A stretch of 64,000 nucleotides of DNA from a bacterium (lineage in GTDB: Bacteria > UBA8248): assembly GCA_965204535.1 (NCBI GenBank), contig CBDBEV010000001.1:2176001-2240000 (forward strand), given 5' to 3'. Below, piece by piece: positions 12,863 to 24,665 of this stretch. Numbering within the stretch: position 1 is the stretch's first letter; each line of letters begins with the position of its first letter. The notes under the pieces are model-generated. The model was not told where the DNA came from. It did not search any database and worked only from the letters and a program-made list of their open reading frames with translations. The translations under genes were made by a program, and so were the position numbers.

Positions 12863-15800
12863 ATGAGACACACCCCTACATCTTTGTATATCGATACTGA
12901 GGTGTTCAAGCGCAATGGGCTACGTTTGAATACAGCGGAATTTGATTTGCTGAAAAGCACGTTCGTTAAGGGAGGACTTCGGTTACTTGTTCCAGCTATG
13001 ATGGAACGTGAGCTTCTTCGCCATTTCCAAAGGCAATCGGAAGAATGTGCAGATGCGGTTGAAAAGGCACAAAGCAAACATCCCTTGCCATTTTTAGAAA
13101 TGTGGTCGCCACTCTCTAGGGACGAAATAATAGATAAATGTTTCATGGAACTTAAAACGCAGTGGGAGCTTTTTAAATCGCACTTTACCGTTGAACAACT
13201 CCCACTTGTTGGGGATATCGAACGCGTAGTGGACAATTACTTTTTGGTTAATCCACCATTTTCTGAAAGAAAACGCAAAGAATTTCCCGACGCTTTTATT
13301 CTGAGCACCTTGGATGCGTATCACAAAAAGCACAAGGCAAACATAGCCGTGATTAGTGCGGATGGAGACTTTGCTGAAGCCTGCAAGACGCGACGTTACA
13401 TCCAACATTTGGCTGACCTCGAAAAGTTTGTCGACGCTTTCAAACCCGAACTTACAAGAGAGCAGTATTTCACCGAAGAGCCAGTCGATCCAACTCAGCC
13501 CATTGCAACCGAGGATTTAACGCAACTCAAAACAATATTAGACAGGGGAGCTGACGTTACCCCGCTTGAAATTAGGCGAGTGCTCAAACTGCTGAGAAGT
13601 CGTGGGCAGAACTATCACTATTTTTTTTCCAATGCCAATGAGCCAATCTGGCTTCCACACCTAAAAGACAGTGCTTTTTTCGAAAATCCTCCTGAAGTCG
13701 AACAAACTGAAGATGGTAGTTTCAAAATCCCTTTTTGGCCACCGATTCATTATCTCGAAAGTGTATTTGAATCAGTCTCTGACAAAGAGGAAGTTCTTGG
13801 TATCTTAGAGGAATTACCAAAGACGACTAACCCACGTGTGGTTGAGAGAATTGTAACCATAATTCTGAAGTCTGACGACTCGAATGACTTGGTGCGTTTT
13901 TCCGATGTGATTTTGACCTTTATTGACCATTCAGCATGGAATTATGAAAAGATTATAAGATTGCTTCAGAAGCTTTCGCTTCTGGATAAGCAAATTGGGT
14001 TGTTCTCAGAATCAGTGTTACTCAAGGTCGTTGAGTTCCAGCCGGACAAACAAGCCGAAGATAAGCAAGCCCGCTATAAAGCTGATCCCGAAGGTTGGCC
14101 ATCCCCCTTGTATCCAAAACCACGCATTGACGAGTGGGAGTACCAAGAGATTCTGGAGAAAGGCGTCCGACCTTTGGCGGAGCGTGAACCATATCAAGTA
14201 GCTCGGATATTGACAGATGCAGTTGCGACCATGATACGCCTCGGAATTCACCAGGAACAACTTGAAAAGGTTGGTGGTAATGACAGATCGGCTATTTGGT
14301 GTCAGCGCGTAAACGAACCCGTTAGAGAGCATCGAGATTCGGATGAAAATCTCGTTCAAACACTGACATTCGCATGTGAAAAAGTTTATGAAAAGACACC
14401 ACAGTTCGTGGATTTGCTTGATCAGTCCCTGCGAAACCAGCGTTGGAATATATTTCTGCGCATCCGCCAACATCTGTATGCAAAGTTTCTGGTACTAACC
14501 AAACCGTGGATCCGAGAGATGATCCTTGCTCATCAAGATTATAGCAACCGGAAGCACGACTTCGAGTTTCAGCAGATGATTCGACTCGCTTGTGAGCACT
14601 TCGGCGCTGGATTGCTCACCGAAGCCGAAAAAGAGCGGATATTCGAAGCGATCCTGAGCGGGCCATCGGAACAGGATTATCGAGACTGGATGGGAGATGA
14701 TTTTACTGAAGAGGTATTCGAATTGCAGAAACGATATTTCCACAAAATACAATTGGCCCCATTCGCTCCAGTGCTTTCCGGCGTATACAACAACTACTTC
14801 CAGGAGCTAAAACTTGAAGAAAAAAGACCGGTTGAAGATGATGATTATGCGCCTTACAAGTCTGGTGGGCCGAAGTGGATTGAGAAACGCAGTCAGAAAA
14901 CGCCTGATGAACTAAAAGAAATGGCGGATGAAGACATCCTATCATTCTTAAACGAATGGGAAAGTGTCGATCGCGACCCTGATGAATGGTGGGTGGAAAT
15001 CACTTTTGGAGCACTTGCCGAAACGTTTCAGCGGACCTTAAAAGAATTCATCATCCCAGACGAATCGCGACTAAATTTCTGGCTTAGGAATCGGGATCAG
15101 ATTAAGCGACCCATCTATGTACGGGCGATGATGTCTGCTATTCAAGAACACGTAAAGGATAAGCAATTCGATAAGCTCGAAGAGTGGTTCGACGTTTGTG
15201 AATGGATACTGCTCCACCCGGATCAACCAGAGGAAGCAGGCGTAAGCCGCAGTGATGAATCCAAAACGCATCCCGACTGGTCGAGTTCACGTCGGGTAGT
15301 GGGCGAATTTATCGGGATGTGTCTAAAGGAAGATGTCGATGTTCCCATATCGACGCGCGACCGACTCTCCACTTTATTGGGTGATCTTTGCACGCAATTC
15401 GACCAGCGATTGGATGAAGACAAACCCGTTCTTTTGAACAGGGACGATCCGTTAACGGAGGCGATCAACAACACGCGTAGCCGAGCGCTAGAGAGTTTGG
15501 TTGATTTCGGTTATTGGGTTCGTCGTCAATTGAAGGATGAGAAAGCTAATACGCCCGAAGTTTTCACAATTCTCGAAAAGCGATTCGGTCTAGAATCTGA
15601 GTGCCCACTAACCCTCCCAGAATACGCCCTTTTAGGGATGCAATATAGCAACATCAGCGTTTTGAATCGAGAATGGGCTGAAAAACACAAAAGCGACTTT
15701 TTTCTGCAAAACGACCTGCGGACATGGGCAGAGGCTTTTGGAAATTTCCTAAAATATAATCGACCCCATAGAATGACCTTCGATATTCTCCGGGATGAAT

Positions 15801-16459
15801 TTAAGTTTGGGATTGAAAAGATTGGTGAGTTGAAGACGGATAGCAAGACAGAGCTTGCTGATACGCTAGGTGAACACTTGTTCACTTATTACGTTTGGGA
15901 TGTTTATCCACTGAGGGGTCAAAATAGTCTACTGGAAATGTATTACGAAAAGACAATAGAAGATAAAGAGCGGTGGTCTCACTTGTTTGATCATGTTGGG
16001 CGTTCCCTGAAAAACAGCGGAAGAGAATTAGAAGAAGACCTGAAAGAGAGAATTATCGAGTTTTTTAACTGGCGATTTGAGCAAAGAGAATCTTCTGAAC
16101 TCAATATGTTTACATTTTGGCTAGCAGCGGAGTGTCTGGATGCGGAATGGCGGCTCAGGTCGTATTCGAAGATACTCGATGTGTGTGGGACAGAAGGCAT
16201 CAGAACATACACTCAGTTGGAATCTCTGCTAAAGATGCTCAAGAACCATACTGCGCTTGTCGTTGAGTGCTTCGCCAAATTGACTGAAGTTGCAATTAAA
16301 AGCGGTAGCAATACCTATATTCATTCCATTGACCAAGCGAAACCCATCCTTCTTGCTGGGCTGAACAGCGATAATGAAGTCGTGCGGAAAAATGCCGAGC
16401 ACGCTCGCGAGAATCTCCTGAAAGGCGATCACTTCGATCTTGTGAATCTTGACGAATAA
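12863..16459 (+). CDS. 1198-aa protein: N-terminal PIN-like domain (DUF4935/PIN_12 type) plus large helical C-terminal region; candidate defence protein
   Basis: LYIDTEVF...MERELLRHF...PPFSERKRKEFPDAFIL...AVISADGDF with acidic residues intact; gene visibly AT-richer than its neighbours. Confidence 0.75.
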   Translation: MRHTPTSLYIDTEVFKRNGLRLNTAEFDLLKSTFVKGGLRLLVPAMMERELLRHFQRQSEECADAVEKAQSKHPLPFLEMWSPLSRDEIIDKCFMELKTQWELFKSHFTVEQLPLVGDIERVVDNYFLVNPPFSERKRKEFPDAFILSTLDAYHKKHKANIAVISADGDFAEACKTRRYIQHLADLEKFVDAFKPELTREQYFTEEPVDPTQPIATEDLTQLKTILDRGADVTPLEIRRVLKLLRSRGQNYHYFFSNANEPIWLPHLKDSAFFENPPEVEQTEDGSFKIPFWPPIHYLESVFESVSDKEEVLGILEELPKTTNPRVVERIVTIILKSDDSNDLVRFSDVILTFIDHSAWNYEKIIRLLQKLSLLDKQIGLFSESVLLKVVEFQPDKQAEDKQARYKADPEGWPSPLYPKPRIDEWEYQEILEKGVRPLAEREPYQVARILTDAVATMIRLGIHQEQLEKVGGNDRSAIWCQRVNEPVREHRDSDENLVQTLTFACEKVYEKTPQFVDLLDQSLRNQRWNIFLRIRQHLYAKFLVLTKPWIREMILAHQDYSNRKHDFEFQQMIRLACEHFGAGLLTEAEKERIFEAILSGPSEQDYRDWMGDDFTEEVFELQKRYFHKIQLAPFAPVLSGVYNNYFQELKLEEKRPVEDDDYAPYKSGGPKWIEKRSQKTPDELKEMADEDILSFLNEWESVDRDPDEWWVEITFGALAETFQRTLKEFIIPDESRLNFWLRNRDQIKRPIYVRAMMSAIQEHVKDKQFDKLEEWFDVCEWILLHPDQPEEAGVSRSDESKTHPDWSSSRRVVGEFIGMCLKEDVDVPISTRDRLSTLLGDLCTQFDQRLDEDKPVLLNRDDPLTEAINNTRSRALESLVDFGYWVRRQLKDEKANTPEVFTILEKRFGLESECPLTLPEYALLGMQYSNISVLNREWAEKHKSDFFLQNDLRTWAEAFGNFLKYNRPHRMTFDILRDEFKFGIEKIGELKTDSKTELADTLGEHLFTYYVWDVYPLRGQNSLLEMYYEKTIEDKERWSHLFDHVGRSLKNSGRELEEDLKERIIEFFNWRFEQRESSELNMFTFWLAAECLDAEWRLRSYSKILDVCGTEGIRTYTQLESLLKMLKNHTALVVECFAKLTEVAIKSGSNTYIHSIDQAKPILLAGLNSDNEVVRKNAEHARENLLKGDHFDLVNLDE

Positions 16460-18022: not shown

Positions 18023-19021
18023 TCAGGGTTTCAGAATCACCTTGATGGCCGCATCCGGCTTGTCCTGAACGGCGAACGCCTCGGGAGCTTCATCGAGATC
18101 GAGGACATGGGAAATCAGAGGCCGGCGCCGGACCTGGCCGCTTTCGACCAACTCGATGGCGCGGCGGTAGTCGTCCCCGGTCCAGGTCCATGACCCGTGG
18201 ATGGCGACGTGTTTGCGCACCACCTGGTTGAAGTCCAGATCCCCCAGGCGCTCGAACAGGGCGACCAGCACCAGACGGCCGTAATCCTGCTTCAGCATGA
18301 GCAGGCCCTCGTTCGGCGAAGACGGCGCGCCGGCGCAGTCGATCACCAGATCGGCGTTGCCGCCTCGAACGCCGAAACGCTCCACCGGCCTGGCGCCGCC
18401 CGTGAGTTCGATCACGGCTTCCACCGGGTCGGTTTCGCTCAGGTTGACGGTGGCGTCGGCGCCGAGGCGTTCGGCCATGTTCAAGCGGCGCCCGGAAGCG
18501 TCGACGACGATGATGCGGCAGTCGACGCTCGCCCGGATGGCCTGGACGCAGCCGAGACCGATGATGCCGGCGCCCAGAACGACCACCGTCTCACCGGCCG
18601 CGGGCCGTCCGAGGGACACGCCGTGCAGGGAGGTGGCCAGCGGCTCGAGCGTCGCGCCCTCCTCGAAGCTGACGGACTCCGGCAGGATGTGCGGGCTGCG
18701 CTCGGTAACGCGAACCGGCACGTACTCCGCGAATCCGCCGTGGCCCAGCCCGGTGATGCGGTCCCCGACGGAAAAGCCGCTGACCTTCTCCCCCACCTCG
18801 ACGATTTCACCGCTCAGTTCATGACCCATGATGCGCCGGTGCTCGTCAATCCGCCGCCCCAGCACCTCGAACATGCCGAGGCGGTACATGTGCAGGTCGG
18901 AACCGCAAATGCCGCACGCCTTGACGCGCACCAATACGTCATGTTCGCCGGCGCCCGGCCGCTCCACCTGCTCCACCCGGATGTCCCGCGGTCCGTGATA
19001 AACGGCTGCTTTCATCTGCAT
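18023..19021 (-). CDS. Zn-dependent medium-chain dehydrogenase (threonine/sorbitol dehydrogenase-like)
   Basis: CGICGSDLH, MGHELSGE, EPLA, LGAGIIG; lacks the four-Cys structural-Zn lobe. Confidence 0.9.
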   Translation of the reverse strand: MQMKAAVYHGPRDIRVEQVERPGAGEHDVLVRVKACGICGSDLHMYRLGMFEVLGRRIDEHRRIMGHELSGEIVEVGEKVSGFSVGDRITGLGHGGFAEYVPVRVTERSPHILPESVSFEEGATLEPLATSLHGVSLGRPAAGETVVVLGAGIIGLGCVQAIRASVDCRIIVVDASGRRLNMAERLGADATVNLSETDPVEAVIELTGGARPVERFGVRGGNADLVIDCAGAPSSPNEGLLMLKQDYGRLVLVALFERLGDLDFNQVVRKHVAIHGSWTWTGDDYRRAIELVESGQVRRRPLISHVLDLDEAPEAFAVQDKPDAAIKVILKP

Positions 19022-19114
19022 ACTCGGTTCCTTCTGCCTGGGCGGCGCCGGGTCGCCTGAATCAGATGGTCATACGGGCGGCCCGGTGCGGGAGAATACA
19101 GAAATACAGCAATC

Positions 19115-19540
19115 GACCCTCAAGGGGTTGTTGAAAAAGCCGGTATGTCGCCCTTGCGAAGATCGCTCTTCACCAACGAGAATATCAAATCAACTCCCCC
19201 TCAAGGGGGGAGTGAATAAAAAATTCTTCTCGGTGGAAGAAAAACCCCCCTGACAAGGGGGGTAGGGGGGTTGCTTCTTTGAGATGAGAAGGGGTTTTTC
19301 AACAGCCCCTTGAGGGTCTGGCTTCCCGAGGGGAAAGCCAGACGATGAAGCCGAGCGTTTTGTGTGACGGCTGAATCGGTGGGGGGACGATTCAAAATTA
19401 AAAGCTCCCCCCACCAGTTCGCTTGCGGGCTTGCGCCCTTAGCTCACTGACTCCCTCTCAAGGGGGGAGTTGATCTCTTAACCCTCATTGGTCGGGATTG
19501 ACCTTCGATACGCGGCTTCGCCGCTACTCAGGGTGAGGTC
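19115..19540. repeat. Palindromic repeat cluster with MITE-type ends
   Basis: 24-bp inverted repeat gaccctcaagggg(t/c)tgttgaaaaa at 19115-19138 and 19295-19318; aactcccc-tcaagggggag units; ccttcgatacg...ctactcagggtgagg unit. Confidence 0.8.
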
Positions 19541-19627
19541 GATACGGCGGCCAGGCGGGACGAGGGGAACGCATTCGCTCCCGAGGCATGTTGTTCAACA
19601 TGCCCGTGTGGGCCTATTTCCGCGAGG

Positions 19628-20653
19628 ATGACGAATATGACGGCGATCGATCCCCACACCCATATCTATCCCGAGCGGTTCATCGCGGACGTGCGCGCGG
19701 GCCGCTTCGGACGCACGGCGACGATAGAGGCCGACGAACACGGCGAGTGGCTCATCACGCGCGGAAAGGTGCTCGGGCGCGACTCGGAACTCAGGAACAA
19801 GCTCACGCCCCTATATTATGAGATCGAGCCGCGCTTCGCCGACATGGAGCGCATGGGCGTCGCGCATCAGGTGCTCTCCATCGGCCCCGCCATGACGCTC
19901 TATACGCTTGAGGCGGAAGCGAACAAGGAACTGGCTGCCTCGCTGAACGACGGCCTCACAGCGCTGACGGTGGAGTACCCCGACAAGTTCTCCTGCATGG
20001 CCACCGTTCCCCTCCAGGCGCCCGAAGCTGCGGCGGCGGAACTCGAACGGGCGTGCGCGAACGGTCACTTGGGCGTGATGATCGCCTCGAACGTGGCAGG
20101 GGAGAACCTCGACGGTCCGGGGTTGGACGTCTTCTGGGCGAAGGCGGAGACACTCGACATGCCCGTGTTCGTGCACCCCACGAACGTGCTGGGCGGGGAC
20201 GACCGCTTAAAGGATTTCTACCTGAGGAACTTCATCGGCAATCCGCTCGACACCACGGTCGCGGTCGCGTGCCTCATCTTCGGCGGCGTGATGGACAGGT
20301 TCCCGGGGCTTCGGTTCTATCTCTCCCACGTGGGCGGCTTCGTGCCCTGGATACGGGGACGCTGGCAGCACGGCTACGGCGAACGCAGGGAGCCCAAGGT
20401 GCATGGCGCGAAAGACCCCGAGCAGTATTTCGGCCGCTTCTATTACGACACCATCATCCACAACGCGGACTGCTTCGAGTTCGCGGCGAAGACGCTGGGA
20501 GCGGAGCGGATTCTCTACGGCACGGACTATCCGGCGGACATGGGCTATCACCAGCCCGCGCGGGATATCCCGGGCCTGAGTCGCCTCCCGGAAGCGGAGC
20601 AGGAGATGATTCTCACGACCAACGCCAGGCGCGTCTACGGGCTTGCGATATAG
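19628..20653 (+). CDS. Amidohydrolase_2 family protein (ACMSD/decarboxylase-like)
   Basis: IDPHTH, MPVFVHP, LSHVGG, FYYDT, ILYGTDYP. Confidence 0.9.
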   Translation: MTNMTAIDPHTHIYPERFIADVRAGRFGRTATIEADEHGEWLITRGKVLGRDSELRNKLTPLYYEIEPRFADMERMGVAHQVLSIGPAMTLYTLEAEANKELAASLNDGLTALTVEYPDKFSCMATVPLQAPEAAAAELERACANGHLGVMIASNVAGENLDGPGLDVFWAKAETLDMPVFVHPTNVLGGDDRLKDFYLRNFIGNPLDTTVAVACLIFGGVMDRFPGLRFYLSHVGGFVPWIRGRWQHGYGERREPKVHGAKDPEQYFGRFYYDTIIHNADCFEFAAKTLGAERILYGTDYPADMGYHQPARDIPGLSRLPEAEQEMILTTNARRVYGLAI

Positions 20654-20736
20654 GGGCTGGACAAAGCGTCTTCCGGGTGTAAAATTCAGGTAAGTATTCC
20701 AGTTCGAGCCGGTTCAACTGCAAAGGGGAAGTTCCG

Positions 20737-21024
20737 ATGGAGGAAACCACCTTCCGCGTGGGCGACAGGGTGCGCATCAAGGAGATGTACCCCGACGGCC
20801 ACCACCGGACGACGTACTTCGTGAAGGGAAAGACGGGCGTCGTCAACCGCTATTTCGGCAAATACAAGAACCCCGAGAATCTCGCCTACGGCGGCGACGG
20901 CCTGCCGCTCCGGGAACTCTACTGGGTGGAGTTCGACATCAACGATCTCTGGGACCACGAGGCGGGGAAAAAACAGGACAAACTCTATATCGAGATTTAC
21001 GAGCATTGGCTGGAGCCGGTCTAG
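20737..21024 (+). CDS. Nitrile hydratase beta subunit, C-terminal SH3-like half only (ScnA-like)
   Basis: FRVGDRVRI...GHHRTTYFVKGKTGVV...NPENLAYG...LYWVEF...DLW...DKLYIEIYEHWLEP. Confidence 0.88.
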   Translation: MEETTFRVGDRVRIKEMYPDGHHRTTYFVKGKTGVVNRYFGKYKNPENLAYGGDGLPLRELYWVEFDINDLWDHEAGKKQDKLYIEIYEHWLEPV

Positions 21025-21062
21025 GCGAATCCGCCGGCTCCCCCGTGAGCAAGGAGCACACC

Positions 21063-21827
21063 ATGGCGCACTCACACGATCACCACAACGGCGGACATGT
21101 TCACCACCACGGCGAGCATCCCCACACCTACAGCCAGGACCCCTCGGCGCACAACGCGCGGATGCAGTCCGACGACGCCTACCGCGAAGGAGCCGTGGCC
21201 CAGGTCGAGCACGACCTGGACTACTACCAGGTGCGCATGATGGCGCTGATGAACGTCCTCCGCGAGAAGGGCCTTCTCACGACGGACGAGATGCGGCGCG
21301 CGGTGGAGGAGATCTACGGCCAGAGCCCGGCCATCGGTTCGCGCATCATCGCGCGCGCCTGGGTCGATGAGGGCTTCAAGGAAAGGCTCCTGGCGGACGC
21401 GGACGCCGCCTGCGGCGAGATGGGCGTCGACACCACGGGCATCAACCGCGTGGTGGCGCTCGAGAATACCGACACGACCCGCTACATGGTGGTGTGCACG
21501 CTGTGTTCGTGCTACCCGAGGCAAATCCTCGGGCAGCCCCCCACCTGGTACAAGAGCTTCCCCTATCGCTCGAAGGCCGTGACGGACCCGAGGGGAACCC
21601 TGAAGGACATGGGCTTCGAGGCGCCCGACGACGTGGAACTCATCGTCATCGACTCGAACGCGGATTGCCGCTATCTCATCATCCCCCAGCGTCCGGCGGG
21701 GACCGAGGACTGGAGCGAGGCGCAGCTCTTCCAGCTCGTGACGCGCGATTCGATGATCGGCGTGGGCGATCCCTTAACACCCGCGCAGCTCGAGCAAGCC
21801 ATACAGGCGTCGGGGCAGGCCAGCTGA
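21063..21827 (+). CDS. nthA: Cobalt-type nitrile hydratase alpha / thiocyanate hydrolase gamma-like subunit with His-rich N-terminus
   Basis: Metal-binding VVCTLCSCYP (Co-type Thr/Tyr), ARAWVD..FKERLL, RYLIIPQRPAGTEDWSE, VTRDSMIGV; AAGGAG RBS. Confidence 0.9.
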   Translation: MAHSHDHHNGGHVHHHGEHPHTYSQDPSAHNARMQSDDAYREGAVAQVEHDLDYYQVRMMALMNVLREKGLLTTDEMRRAVEEIYGQSPAIGSRIIARAWVDEGFKERLLADADAACGEMGVDTTGINRVVALENTDTTRYMVVCTLCSCYPRQILGQPPTWYKSFPYRSKAVTDPRGTLKDMGFEAPDDVELIVIDSNADCRYLIIPQRPAGTEDWSEAQLFQLVTRDSMIGVGDPLTPAQLEQAIQASGQAS

Positions 21828-21850
21828 TCTGGGGCAAAATCGTTTCACGT

Positions 21851-21881
21851 GGCGGGGGTGGAAGCTCCCGCCGCTTTTTTT
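21851..21881 (+). terminator. Putative intrinsic terminator
   Basis: ggcgggggt-ggaa-gctcccgcc followed by a T run. Confidence 0.6.
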
Positions 21882-21895
21882 CGGGATGAGAACGA

Positions 21896-23302
21896 ATGCC
21901 CTCGCCTCGCGTCATCGCGATCCAGTTCGACGGTCTGCGGGCCGACGCTCTGAGTGAGGAGTCCACGCCGAATCTCCTCGTGGCGGCGAAGCGCGGCGCG
22001 TGGTTTCAGAATCACCGCAGCACGTTTCCCACCTCGACGAGAGTCTGCGTATCGAGCCTCGCCACCGGCGTTTATCCCCAAAAGCACGGCCTGCCGGGCA
22101 ATTCGCTCTTCTCGCGCGAACTGGGCCGAACCATCACGACGGGCTGCCATGAGAATCTCGTAAACTGGCAGCGCGCCATGGGCGGGCGTCTGCTGTTGCG
22201 GGACACCTTTTTCGAGCGGGTGGGGGGCGGCGTCATCATCAGCGCGGCGTCGAGCGGTTCCGCCTGGCTCTGGAACGCGGGCCGCGCCGCGCGCCTGATC
22301 CATCCCGTTGCGGAGTACCCTGCCGGGGAGCGCGAAGAAATAGAGGAGGCGGGAGAAATCCCCCCTGCCGGCGAGCCGGATCTTCCGCGCTGCGAATGGG
22401 CGCTCGACGTGGCGCTCGATTACGCGATCCCGAAACTCGCGCCCCCGGTGCTCGTGGCTCACCTGAGCGAGCCGGACAGCACGCAGCATCACCAGGGCGC
22501 CGCAGGCGCGGTTCACCGCCAGGCGCTCGAAGGAGTGGACAGGCTGTTCGGCGCATTCTGGGAGAGGTTTCAGGCGGAGCGCGATGACTGGAGTCAGACG
22601 AACCTTCTCCTGTTCTCGGACCACGGAGTCGTGGCGACGGCGGGCATGATCGACCTGGATGCGGAACTTGGCGATCTCCCCGGCCGCGGGGAGAGCTGGC
22701 AGGCGGCGCACAGCGAGGGGACCGCTCTTTTCTACGCCGAATCGGAAAATACGCTTATCGAACTCGCCGCGTTCTTGCGGACGAAAGAATGGGCGGGGCC
22801 ATTGTTCTCGAAAGAGGGGGATGGAGCGGCGGGCGCGCTGCCGGGGACGATGTCCCTGGGACTGGCGGGTTGCGGCGGTGCCCGCGCGCCGGATTTGCTC
22901 ATGGGCTTTCAGTGGGGCGATGGCTTTTTACGAGACGAGAACCCCGAGGGCGCGCTCCCCGGCTGGGGATATTCATCCGTCAACAACAAGGGCGGCGGCG
23001 GAACGCACGGCTCGTGCAGTCCGTATGAGCTTCGCAACTTCCTGATTGGCGCAGGCCCCGCTTTTCCGGCGGGCGCGCGGGTGGACGCGCCGACGGGCAA
23101 CATCGACCTGGCCCCCACCATCCTCTCCCTGATGGGGAGGGAGACCTCCGGCCTCGATGGAGAGCCGCTCACCAAAACGCCCCGTGCGAGGGGCGAGGAG
23201 CGGCTCTACCGGGTGGAATCGAAGGATGTCGCGCAGACCCTCTCGCGGGCGGAGGCGGACGGGCGGTTTTATCTCAATTTCGCCAGGCTGGAGAGGGCGT
23301 AG
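21896..23302 (+). CDS. Alkaline phosphatase superfamily protein (nucleotide pyrophosphatase/phosphodiesterase-like)
   Basis: IQFDGLRAD, STFPTSTR..SSLATG, SEPDSTQH, FSDHG, GTHGS, NIDLAPTI. Confidence 0.85.
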   Translation: MPSPRVIAIQFDGLRADALSEESTPNLLVAAKRGAWFQNHRSTFPTSTRVCVSSLATGVYPQKHGLPGNSLFSRELGRTITTGCHENLVNWQRAMGGRLLLRDTFFERVGGGVIISAASSGSAWLWNAGRAARLIHPVAEYPAGEREEIEEAGEIPPAGEPDLPRCEWALDVALDYAIPKLAPPVLVAHLSEPDSTQHHQGAAGAVHRQALEGVDRLFGAFWERFQAERDDWSQTNLLLFSDHGVVATAGMIDLDAELGDLPGRGESWQAAHSEGTALFYAESENTLIELAAFLRTKEWAGPLFSKEGDGAAGALPGTMSLGLAGCGGARAPDLLMGFQWGDGFLRDENPEGALPGWGYSSVNNKGGGGTHGSCSPYELRNFLIGAGPAFPAGARVDAPTGNIDLAPTILSLMGRETSGLDGEPLTKTPRARGEERLYRVESKDVAQTLSRAEADGRFYLNFARLERA

Positions 23303-23730: not shown

Positions 23731-24636
23731 CTAACGCTCGGCGTCCGTATACGCGGCGCGTTCCTCGTCCTTGAAGTCGTCCAGCAGGTTGTGCCCGCCC
23801 TCTTGTCCCTGCCGGACGGCGAAGATGGGCGGCGGCACGTCGGGGCGCCATTTGGTGGTCTCGGGCGGCTCGGGCCACTCATAGGGCAGGTGCCGGTAGG
23901 CGTTGGGCGCGTTCGCCTCTTCGAGCAGCGCGGCCATGTCCTCGCAAATCCGGCGCTGGCCCGTGTAATCGCCCACGACGCCCAACTGCCGCCCGAAGGG
24001 ATACTGGACGAAAACGGCTCTCGGCACGCAGACGCGCTCGGTGGTCTCGGGCACGTTGGAGATGATGACGGTGGCGATCCCCGCCTTTTCGATCTCGCGC
24101 TGAAGCAGTCCGCCGGACCGGTTGCAGAGCGGTCAGACCGGATAGAGGAAGGCCGCGTCCACGCCTTCGGCCTTCATCTTCTCGATCATCAGGGGCGCCG
24201 TGCGCTTCACCAGCGGGTTGAAGTTCGGGATGTAGCCCATGATGGAATAGAGCGTCTCGGCCAGCGCGCCGATTCTCCCCTCCCTCTCGAAATCGAGGAA
24301 GATGTCGACCGGCCAGGACACGTTCCTGTCCTCGGCCATGAACGAGGTGTCGACGTGCAGGTGGGAATACGCCACGTCGTCCTGGCCCGCTGATTTGGGA
24401 ATCTCCCGGTGGGTGGGGTCGCCCCAGGTGCCCTCGCGGCGCTCCCGCTCGTAATCGAAAGAAACGTCGTCCTTCATGAAGATGCCGGCCGTGGAGACGA
24501 GCGTGACCCTGCACTCGGCGAGCGGTTTCGCCATCGGCGTCCACGGCGTTTTGGCCGGGTCGGCGTGGCGCTGCGCCAGGACGCGCTCGCGCGAGGTGGG
24601 GTGAAAATAGAATCCATCTACTTTTTCTACGGCCAT
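23731..24636 (-). CDS. Selenoprotein, PrdB-like (glycine/sarcosine/betaine/D-proline reductase selenoprotein B family), Sec at codon 168
   Basis: ORFs 24133..24642 and 23731..24054 are one frame joined through TGA at 24133-24135: GVDAAFLYPV-U-PLCNRSGGLLQREIEKAGIATVIIS; parallels PrdB VDAVVLTAG-U-GTCHRS..VQRAIEEAGIPT; WTP..KPL, STAG, GDPTHREIP, SH motifs upstream. Confidence 0.9.
24098..24132 (-). promoter_or_regulatory. Putative bacterial SECIS element
   Basis: Starting at nt 13 after UGA: CGGUCC-GGC-GGACUG hairpin with G-containing apical loop; lower stem CGCUCUG/CAGCG possible. Confidence 0.65.
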
Positions 24637-24665
24637 GCTCATCCTCGAATTCGCGGTTCCAGGAT

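Follow-up and report, generated by a model that had tools for sequence, protein, structure and literature searches.

The arginine carried by the N-terminal half of the beta subunit (beta-N) is regarded as essential for nitrile hydratase (NHase) catalysis. Canonical Co-type NHases, such as those of P. thermophila (1ire) and P. putida (3qxe), have this beta-N half, a P14K-type activator and YPW in the metal-binding motif of the alpha subunit. Thiocyanate hydrolase (SCNase) of Thiobacillus thioparus (2dd4) has a split beta and three subunits, including a beta-N-type chain; its motif reads YPR, and an extra Arg at position beta-90 has a role in anion binding. In the three-subunit NHases, i.e., ScNHase of S. 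canus (AnhD/AnhE/AnhA) and toyocamycin NHase, an AnhD-like beta-N gene is present, a free-standing gene for the C-terminal part of beta (beta-C) precedes alpha, and no activator gene accompanies them (excerpts of PMC7329996). According to the same excerpts, the S. canus enzyme takes up cobalt directly without an activator, and it retains 4.17% of its activity when beta-N is left out, while alpha alone is inactive (Table 2 there).

Here, we analyzed a locus in a bacterial genome that has a beta-C and an alpha gene only. It lies in a window of 64,000 nucleotides (the whole stretch of DNA analyzed; assembly GCA_965204535.1, contig CBDBEV010000001.1, positions 2,176,001 to 2,240,000). The pair is a conserved natural architecture without beta-N and activator genes, a variant of the nitrile hydratase family, and it lacks the beta-N gene found in canonical NHase, SCNase and three-subunit NHase. 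Literature searches, with subscription papers largely outside their reach, found no description of such a two-gene form or of a trimer, and a phylogenetic survey that kept NHase sequences of 200-300 residues does not discuss the two-gene form in the excerpted text (PMC10098168).

A two-gene locus of the nitrile hydratase family

The features of the locus are listed in Table 1. An earlier note on this DNA had described a 95-aa beta-C fragment and a CTLCSCYPR alpha subunit followed by a terminator; both ORFs proved intact and a terminator-like hairpin is indeed present downstream. The alpha N-terminal sequence that it quoted is exact, and the His-rich tract is real. The intergenic gaps around the two genes are 83, 38 and 68 nt, thus a beta-N gene cannot fit into the locus.

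Table 1. Features of the two-gene locus (positions are those of the window)
Feature	Position	Strand	Remarks
ACMSD-like amidohydrolase-2 gene, upstream neighbor	19628-20653	+	Conserved neighbor in this family of genomes
Sigma-70-like promoter consensus, 5' of beta-C	20658-20685	+	Consensus match alone; 1 site vs 0.6 expected
Beta C-terminal (SH3-like) subunit gene	20737-21024	+	95 aa; PF02211, E 5.6e-21
Alpha (catalytic) subunit gene	21063-21827	+	254 aa; PF02979, E 2.6e-71; NHase alpha fold
His-rich N-terminal tail of alpha	21063-21125	+	10 His in 21 residues; pLDDT <50
Helix-turn-helix of alpha arm	21192-21326	+	Residues 44-88; matches beta-N hairpin 1
DEMRR motif of alpha arm	21285-21299	+	Arg78 aligned to DEFR Arg of NHase beta chains
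Metal-binding motif CTLCSCYPR	21495-21521	+	Alpha residues 145-153
Intrinsic-terminator-like hairpin and T run	21849-21882	+	Hairpin 21849-21874

The AF2 model of alpha (pLDDT 86.5) matched NHase alpha chains in both Foldseek and VIA, with 4ob1_A at Z 26.7 and an rmsd of 2.4 Å over 197 residues (VIA). The NHase alpha fold and the CxLCSC metal ligands are both present, which places the protein in the nitrile hydratase superfamily (alpha), and we take its CTLCSCY signature to be of the Co type. This fold and Cys motif are shared with ScNHase and toyocamycin NHase. Structural alignments gave ~42-48% identity to the alpha chains of canonical Co-type NHases, which have the same fold, and the model could be superposed on the SCNase gamma chain over 203 columns with an rmsd of 1.9 Å. 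On the other hand, alpha missed the cut-offs of both the canonical family TIGR01323 (232.3 vs 249.85 bits) and the SCNase family TIGR03887 (171.4 vs 291.45 bits). The motif reads YPR, whereas canonical enzymes have YPW.

In beta-C, the Arg of GHHR (Arg24) is aligned to the Arg of GHTR in NHase beta chains, which is a second-shell residue of the beta C-terminal domain and is likewise present in canonical Co-type enzymes. The H-x-R was retained in all 31 distinct beta-C sequences from loci without beta-N.

Both genes, the arm of alpha included, are under purifying selection (10/10 pairwise comparisons), with dN of 0.02-0.08 vs dS of 0.2-0.9 for the beta-C gene. A pseudogene or an assembly gap was ruled out by this selection together with the recurrence of the pair in many genomes, some of them single-contig. 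In RNA libraries of three studies, contigs of ~95% alike relatives cover beta-C and alpha, all at small shares; such contigs start at 20713 and 20721, one spans 20713-21556, and no cover was found at 21856-22325. The gene pair occurs in both sponge and seawater RNA libraries. These contigs carry neither strand nor level and DNA may be present, hence they are a weak hint of transcription.

Absence of beta-N and activator genes

The genome (4.56 Mb in 2 contigs, 95.7% complete) contains one full alpha match and one beta-C match. PF21006 (E 0.11) and TIGR03889 (E 0.32) each matched nothing in the whole genome but the arm of alpha. Our own beta-N profile (84 sequences from fetched loci; filters disabled) likewise gave the arm as its sole match in the genome (E 5.8e-6; the next match had E 3.1), aligned to profile positions 13-55 with the upstream loop included. 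The same searches readily detected beta-N in three-gene loci. No activator gene of the P14K/NhlE type was found in this genome by profile search. The absence of both genes, which had been noticed near the pair, thus extends to the whole assembly.

Distribution and phylogeny

Full-length alpha was found in 43 of the 51 genomes of the phylum and the gene pair in 40. Thirty-two of the 51 have alpha and beta-C without a beta-N gene, and 8 of these are single-contig assemblies; in one genome (G007), the only PF21006 match above the cut-off was its own alpha arm. Eight further genomes have the pair together with a canonical or three-gene cluster that has its own beta-N (two on cut contigs). Activator matches were confined to 8/51 genomes, each adjoining a canonical-type beta gene. 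The organism names on records of related loci, where given, are Nitrospinota or Nitrospinaceae. Many short matches to the alpha C-terminus were also noticed in genomes of the genus (27 in G024), which are probably nitrile-hydratase-leader RiPP precursors.

Outside the phylum, the pair was identified in four genomes. In G091, no beta-N was seen in the genome and alpha has no N-terminal extension. The alphas of G531, G507 and G387 (loci L203, L204 and L208) bear an extra hairpin-2-like helix that precedes the His tract; for G531 and G507, a beta-N gene was found at another place in the genome. In a metagenome scan (best 80 of 600 matches), every locus with enough flank had beta-N. The rule by which a locus was labeled as lacking beta-N from 440 nt of flank is fallible, as the beta-N gene of L180 lies ~1 kb further upstream.

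A quick unrooted tree of catalytic domains was built from 147 columns and, after redundancy filtering, 128 of the 161 distinct sequences. A weakly supported split (SH-aLRT 78) places all 21 rows without beta-N on the same side. The 32/32 conservation described below may therefore reflect a single event, and a single origin of the form without beta-N is possible.

The alpha arm and its relation to the beta-N hairpins

The earlier note had observed that the alpha N-terminus resembles the Arg-bearing helix of beta-N. The resemblance is borne out by the arm being the sole beta-N profile match, but the arm is no special addition: the DEMRR helix is part of the N-terminal arm that all NHase alphas have, as seen in PDB alignments and in PF02979, which aligns from residue 55. 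On 3qz5_A, the alpha model superposed over 185 residues with an rmsd of 1.7 Å and the arm in the normal alpha position. What differs is its sequence. The arm carries His50, Tyr54/Tyr55, Arg58 and Asp75-Glu76-x-Arg78-Arg79, and its DEMRR falls on the motif aligned with DEFR of solved beta chains; judged by this alignment, Arg78 is the candidate for the beta-Arg56-type Arg.

We compared distinct arms of the different locus types. DExR was present in 32/32 arms without beta-N, 27/95 three-gene arms and 0/24 canonical arms, and the set His50/Asp75/Glu76/Arg78/Arg-or-Lys79 in 32/32, 2/95 and 0/24, respectively. These counts leave out 13 arms that were contig-cut or had no beta-C match, 2 fusions and 2 three-gene arms with poor anchoring, and the rows include kin and hence are not independent. 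Some of the control sequences had been collected with an alignment rich in DExRR, so that the contrast is a conservative one. The five-residue set is constant across four lineages that are 47-60% identical. In true beta-N hairpin 1, D-x-x-R occurs in 76/82 rows. The counterpart of His50 in beta-N/alpha fusions is a His preceding hairpin 1, with a conservation of at least 90%.

Three-gene arms of the G053 class are intermediate: many score 20-38 bits on the hairpin-1 profile despite an adjoining beta-N gene, which implies that part of the arm signal is ancestry. Across the whole phylum around G053, the search proved too diluted (2/251). In hhalign comparisons, the profile of arms without beta-N scored 59-62 against hairpin 1, 50-52 against hairpin 2 and 67-69 against three-gene arms, whereas hairpins 1 and 2 scored only ~20 against each other. 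An arm near both hairpins, which are distant from one another, fits one sequence occupying three slots. At the level of sequence, these comparisons show homology of the alpha arm to both beta-N hairpins, with the residues of hairpin 1 retained in the arm. VIA alignments of the window's own model placed the arm on 2dd4_B 52-100 and 3qxe_B 12-60 in hairpin-1 register, with Z 2.3-2.5, which is within noise.

Possible pseudo-three-fold repeats and natural fusions

A segment of a natural fusion (L102) comprising hairpin 2, linker, arm and catalytic domain was folded (pLDDT 85) and compared with 48,161 solved chains. Two alpha chains ranked first, followed by three beta chains in a shifted register, with hairpin 2 on beta hairpin 1 and the arm on beta hairpin 2, which was the outcome predicted beforehand. 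The beta-chain matches were 2dd4_B (Z 8.8, 2.3 Å, 66 residues), 4fm4_B (Z 7.8, 3.2 Å, 75 residues) and 3qxe_B (Z 7.4, 4.1 Å, 77 residues), all under the Z of ~13 below which the tool advises caution with helical bundles; the next unrelated chain had Z 4.9. The AF2 model may have borrowed the beta arrangement. Foldseek on the model of hairpin 2 and arm was uninformative, with no beta chains among the matches listed. The model comparison, together with natural proteins that have three tandem hairpins, suggests a pseudo-three-fold repeat made up of the arm and the two beta-N hairpins, and we infer that the ordinary NHase alpha arm, hairpin 1 and hairpin 2 are three head-to-tail copies of one repeat.

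Single-chain alphas with three tandem hairpins also occur in nature. P0238 (6 members) and its relative P0404 (61%) form a small family with short linkers and an alpha-like His-rich start, and in P0259 (4 members) few residues separate hairpin 2 from the arm. The three hairpins follow one another head to tail in these chains. Fusions and triple-hairpin alphas (P0052, P0122, P0238 and P0259), which their sources label only as 'nitrile hydratase', resemble the window alpha in having beta-N-type hairpins on the alpha chain, but have three hairpins per catalytic domain, while the window alpha has one. In total, at least 26 natural beta-N/alpha fusions with His-rich linkers were noticed (P0052, P0065, P0121-P0133, P0144-P0148, L102 and L105), some of them with Chloroflexota or alphaproteobacterial hosts according to the source records. 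In P0136, hairpin 2 runs directly into the catalytic domain and replaces the arm; this is a single sequence on a 1-kb contig and possibly an assembly chimera.

Metal loading, substrate and genomic context

The earlier note had assigned the His tract a role in assisting cobalt loading. This proposal found no support: His-rich N-termini are also common in alphas with beta-N (at least 5 His in 37/97 of three-gene or fused type), and the Monosiga His17 linker is reported to be dispensable for metal uptake (PMC7193024). A special cobalt chaperone was rejected on both grounds. The tails of alphas without beta-N have a median of 10 His vs 4 elsewhere; the start codons were approximated in both counts. 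By analogy with three-subunit enzymes, cobalt may be loaded without an activator.

Thiocyanate had been suggested by the likeness of YPR to SCNase gamma. The structural part of this comparison is correct, as Arg153 of alpha lies at the gamma-Arg136 site, but YPR is common to most three-gene NHase-family loci and therefore does not point to thiocyanate specifically. The position of SCNase beta-Arg90 is Met77 in the window alpha and M, V, L or S in 32/32 arms; such a hydrophobic residue or Ser favors nitrile over thiocyanate. Thiocyanate as the favored substrate was thus rejected, and it is most likely, judging from these residues, that the reaction would be the hydration of an organic nitrile. 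A link to sponge aeroplysinin-1 hydratase was also considered and rejected, as that enzyme is Mn-dependent and without homology to known NHases according to excerpts of PMC3766881.

In this family of genomes, the pair usually lies 3' of two tandem ACMSD-like amidohydrolase genes, and the product may possibly be passed to these adjacent enzymes. No ACMSD-like genes were seen at the loci of G002, G003, G004, G091, G531, G507 and G387, thus the link is not universal. Close relatives (L005) have both tandem copies; here the first copy is 1.5 Mb away (G000 C2:686757-687782), and the breakpoint region (window 19021-19628) contains short palindromic repeats, suggesting rearrangement. Elsewhere in the window, a 1198-aa ORF on the minus strand (12863-16459) is seemingly more AT-rich than its neighbors and is possibly acquired DNA. 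Also on the minus strand (23731-24642), a GrdB/PrdB-like ORF (24133-24642) is followed by a short ORF (23731-24054), and the two may encode one selenoprotein via UGA.

Proposed mechanism and alternative explanations

The genes would encode a cobalt-type protein pair of the nitrile hydratase family that lacks a gene for beta-N; the arm of a neighboring alpha chain would replace beta-N and give the active-site Arg. Three identical arms would fill all three hairpin slots and rebuild the cap, such that the cap over each Cys site comprises Arg78 from a second chain and aromatics near Tyr54/55 from a third, and beta-C would give the other Arg (Arg24) to each site. We consider this reading, with neighboring arms forming a ring and supplying Arg in trans, to have about an even chance of being correct. 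Supply in trans by an oligomer of whatever kind appears somewhat more likely than not, and for a trimer specifically, an (alpha/beta-C)3 ring, the chances are evenly balanced at best. The extra hairpin-like helix in the alphas of G531, G507 and G387 would not be needed by a simple trimer and counts against it. The importance of such an Arg is illustrated by the reported inactivity of beta-R56Y/E mutants (PMC7193024). The idea of a new architecture in which alpha supplies Arg therefore stands in part: the motif is conserved and the arm is hairpin-1-like, but with the arm in the normal alpha position, the Arg would have to come from a neighboring alpha chain and not from the same one.

It is also conceivable, but unlikely, that alpha and beta-C are active without any beta-N-type Arg and that the arm motif is an inherited structural feature. 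The main support for this is ToyJ, the toyocamycin alpha, which is reported to be active alone and fully modified (Nelp 2014, as cited in the excerpted PMC7329996); the occurrence of DExR in more than a quarter of three-gene arms (27/95) and the possible single origin of arms without beta-N also agree with it. However, S. canus AnhEA has only 4.17% activity and AnhA alone 0 (PMC7329996, same excerpts), and the five-residue set is invariant across the divergent lineages and rare elsewhere. In NHase, the alpha arm packs on the beta helical domain (PMC9465369, in the part excerpted), thus without beta-N it would presumably be left partnerless.

Quite unlikely, in our view, is supply in trans by a two-fold arm swap between two alphas, with a longer N-terminal extension filling the third slot. 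Most alphas without beta-N have long N-termini, three carry the extra hairpin-2-like helix, and the arm is most like hairpin 1, all of which would suit a swap. Yet the extensions differ among lineages, the G091 alpha has none in a genome without detected beta-N, and the shifted-register model match would indicate a head-to-tail repeat.

We regard it as very unlikely that the pair is a metal-binding or otherwise re-purposed protein and no hydratase. Both NCBIfam cut-offs were missed (232 vs 249.85; 171 vs 291), the His tail is long relative to other alphas (median 10 vs 4 His), and the catalytic-domain residues Arg171, Glu182 and Phe183, which are (nearly) invariant in alphas with beta-N, vary in the group without it. 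These three residues are presumably contacts to the beta N-terminal loop. Against re-purposing, all ligands of the CTLCSC motif as well as the Arg of beta-C are retained, and the upstream enzyme neighbors are conserved.

A beta-N partner that is unassembled or too diverged for detection is highly improbable: although the genome is 95.7% complete and eight genomes have the pair alongside a further cluster that includes a beta-N of its own, the filters-off search gave no match besides the arm, none was found in 32 genomes (8 of them single-contig), and beta-N of three-gene loci is detected by these searches without difficulty. Finally, it is hardly conceivable that the arm bends back so that Arg78 serves the active site of the same chain, which is the simplest form of the earlier proposal; the arm has the hairpin-1 residues, but its spacing to the catalytic domain equals that of three-gene alphas, and the model superposes on canonical alphas with the arm included, so that Arg78 is unlikely to reach the site of its own chain.

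An evolutionary extension of the ring reading, which we consider unlikely, is that a symmetric (alpha/beta-C)3 ring was ancestral and that beta-N and the self-subunit-swapping activators arose from the arm by tandem duplication, with triple-hairpin alphas and fusions as intermediates. If this were true, the pair would be a minimal self-maturing NHase.

Implications

A natural, conserved lineage without a beta-N gene makes the purpose and origin of beta-N and of the activators approachable with two small proteins. If the ring model is true, a hidden three-fold repeat would exist in a well-studied industrial enzyme family, and the pair would offer an activator-free scaffold. As it is present in 40 of the 51 genomes of a phylum that has been little studied, and also in RNA libraries, the pair may mark an unrecognized nitrile pathway.
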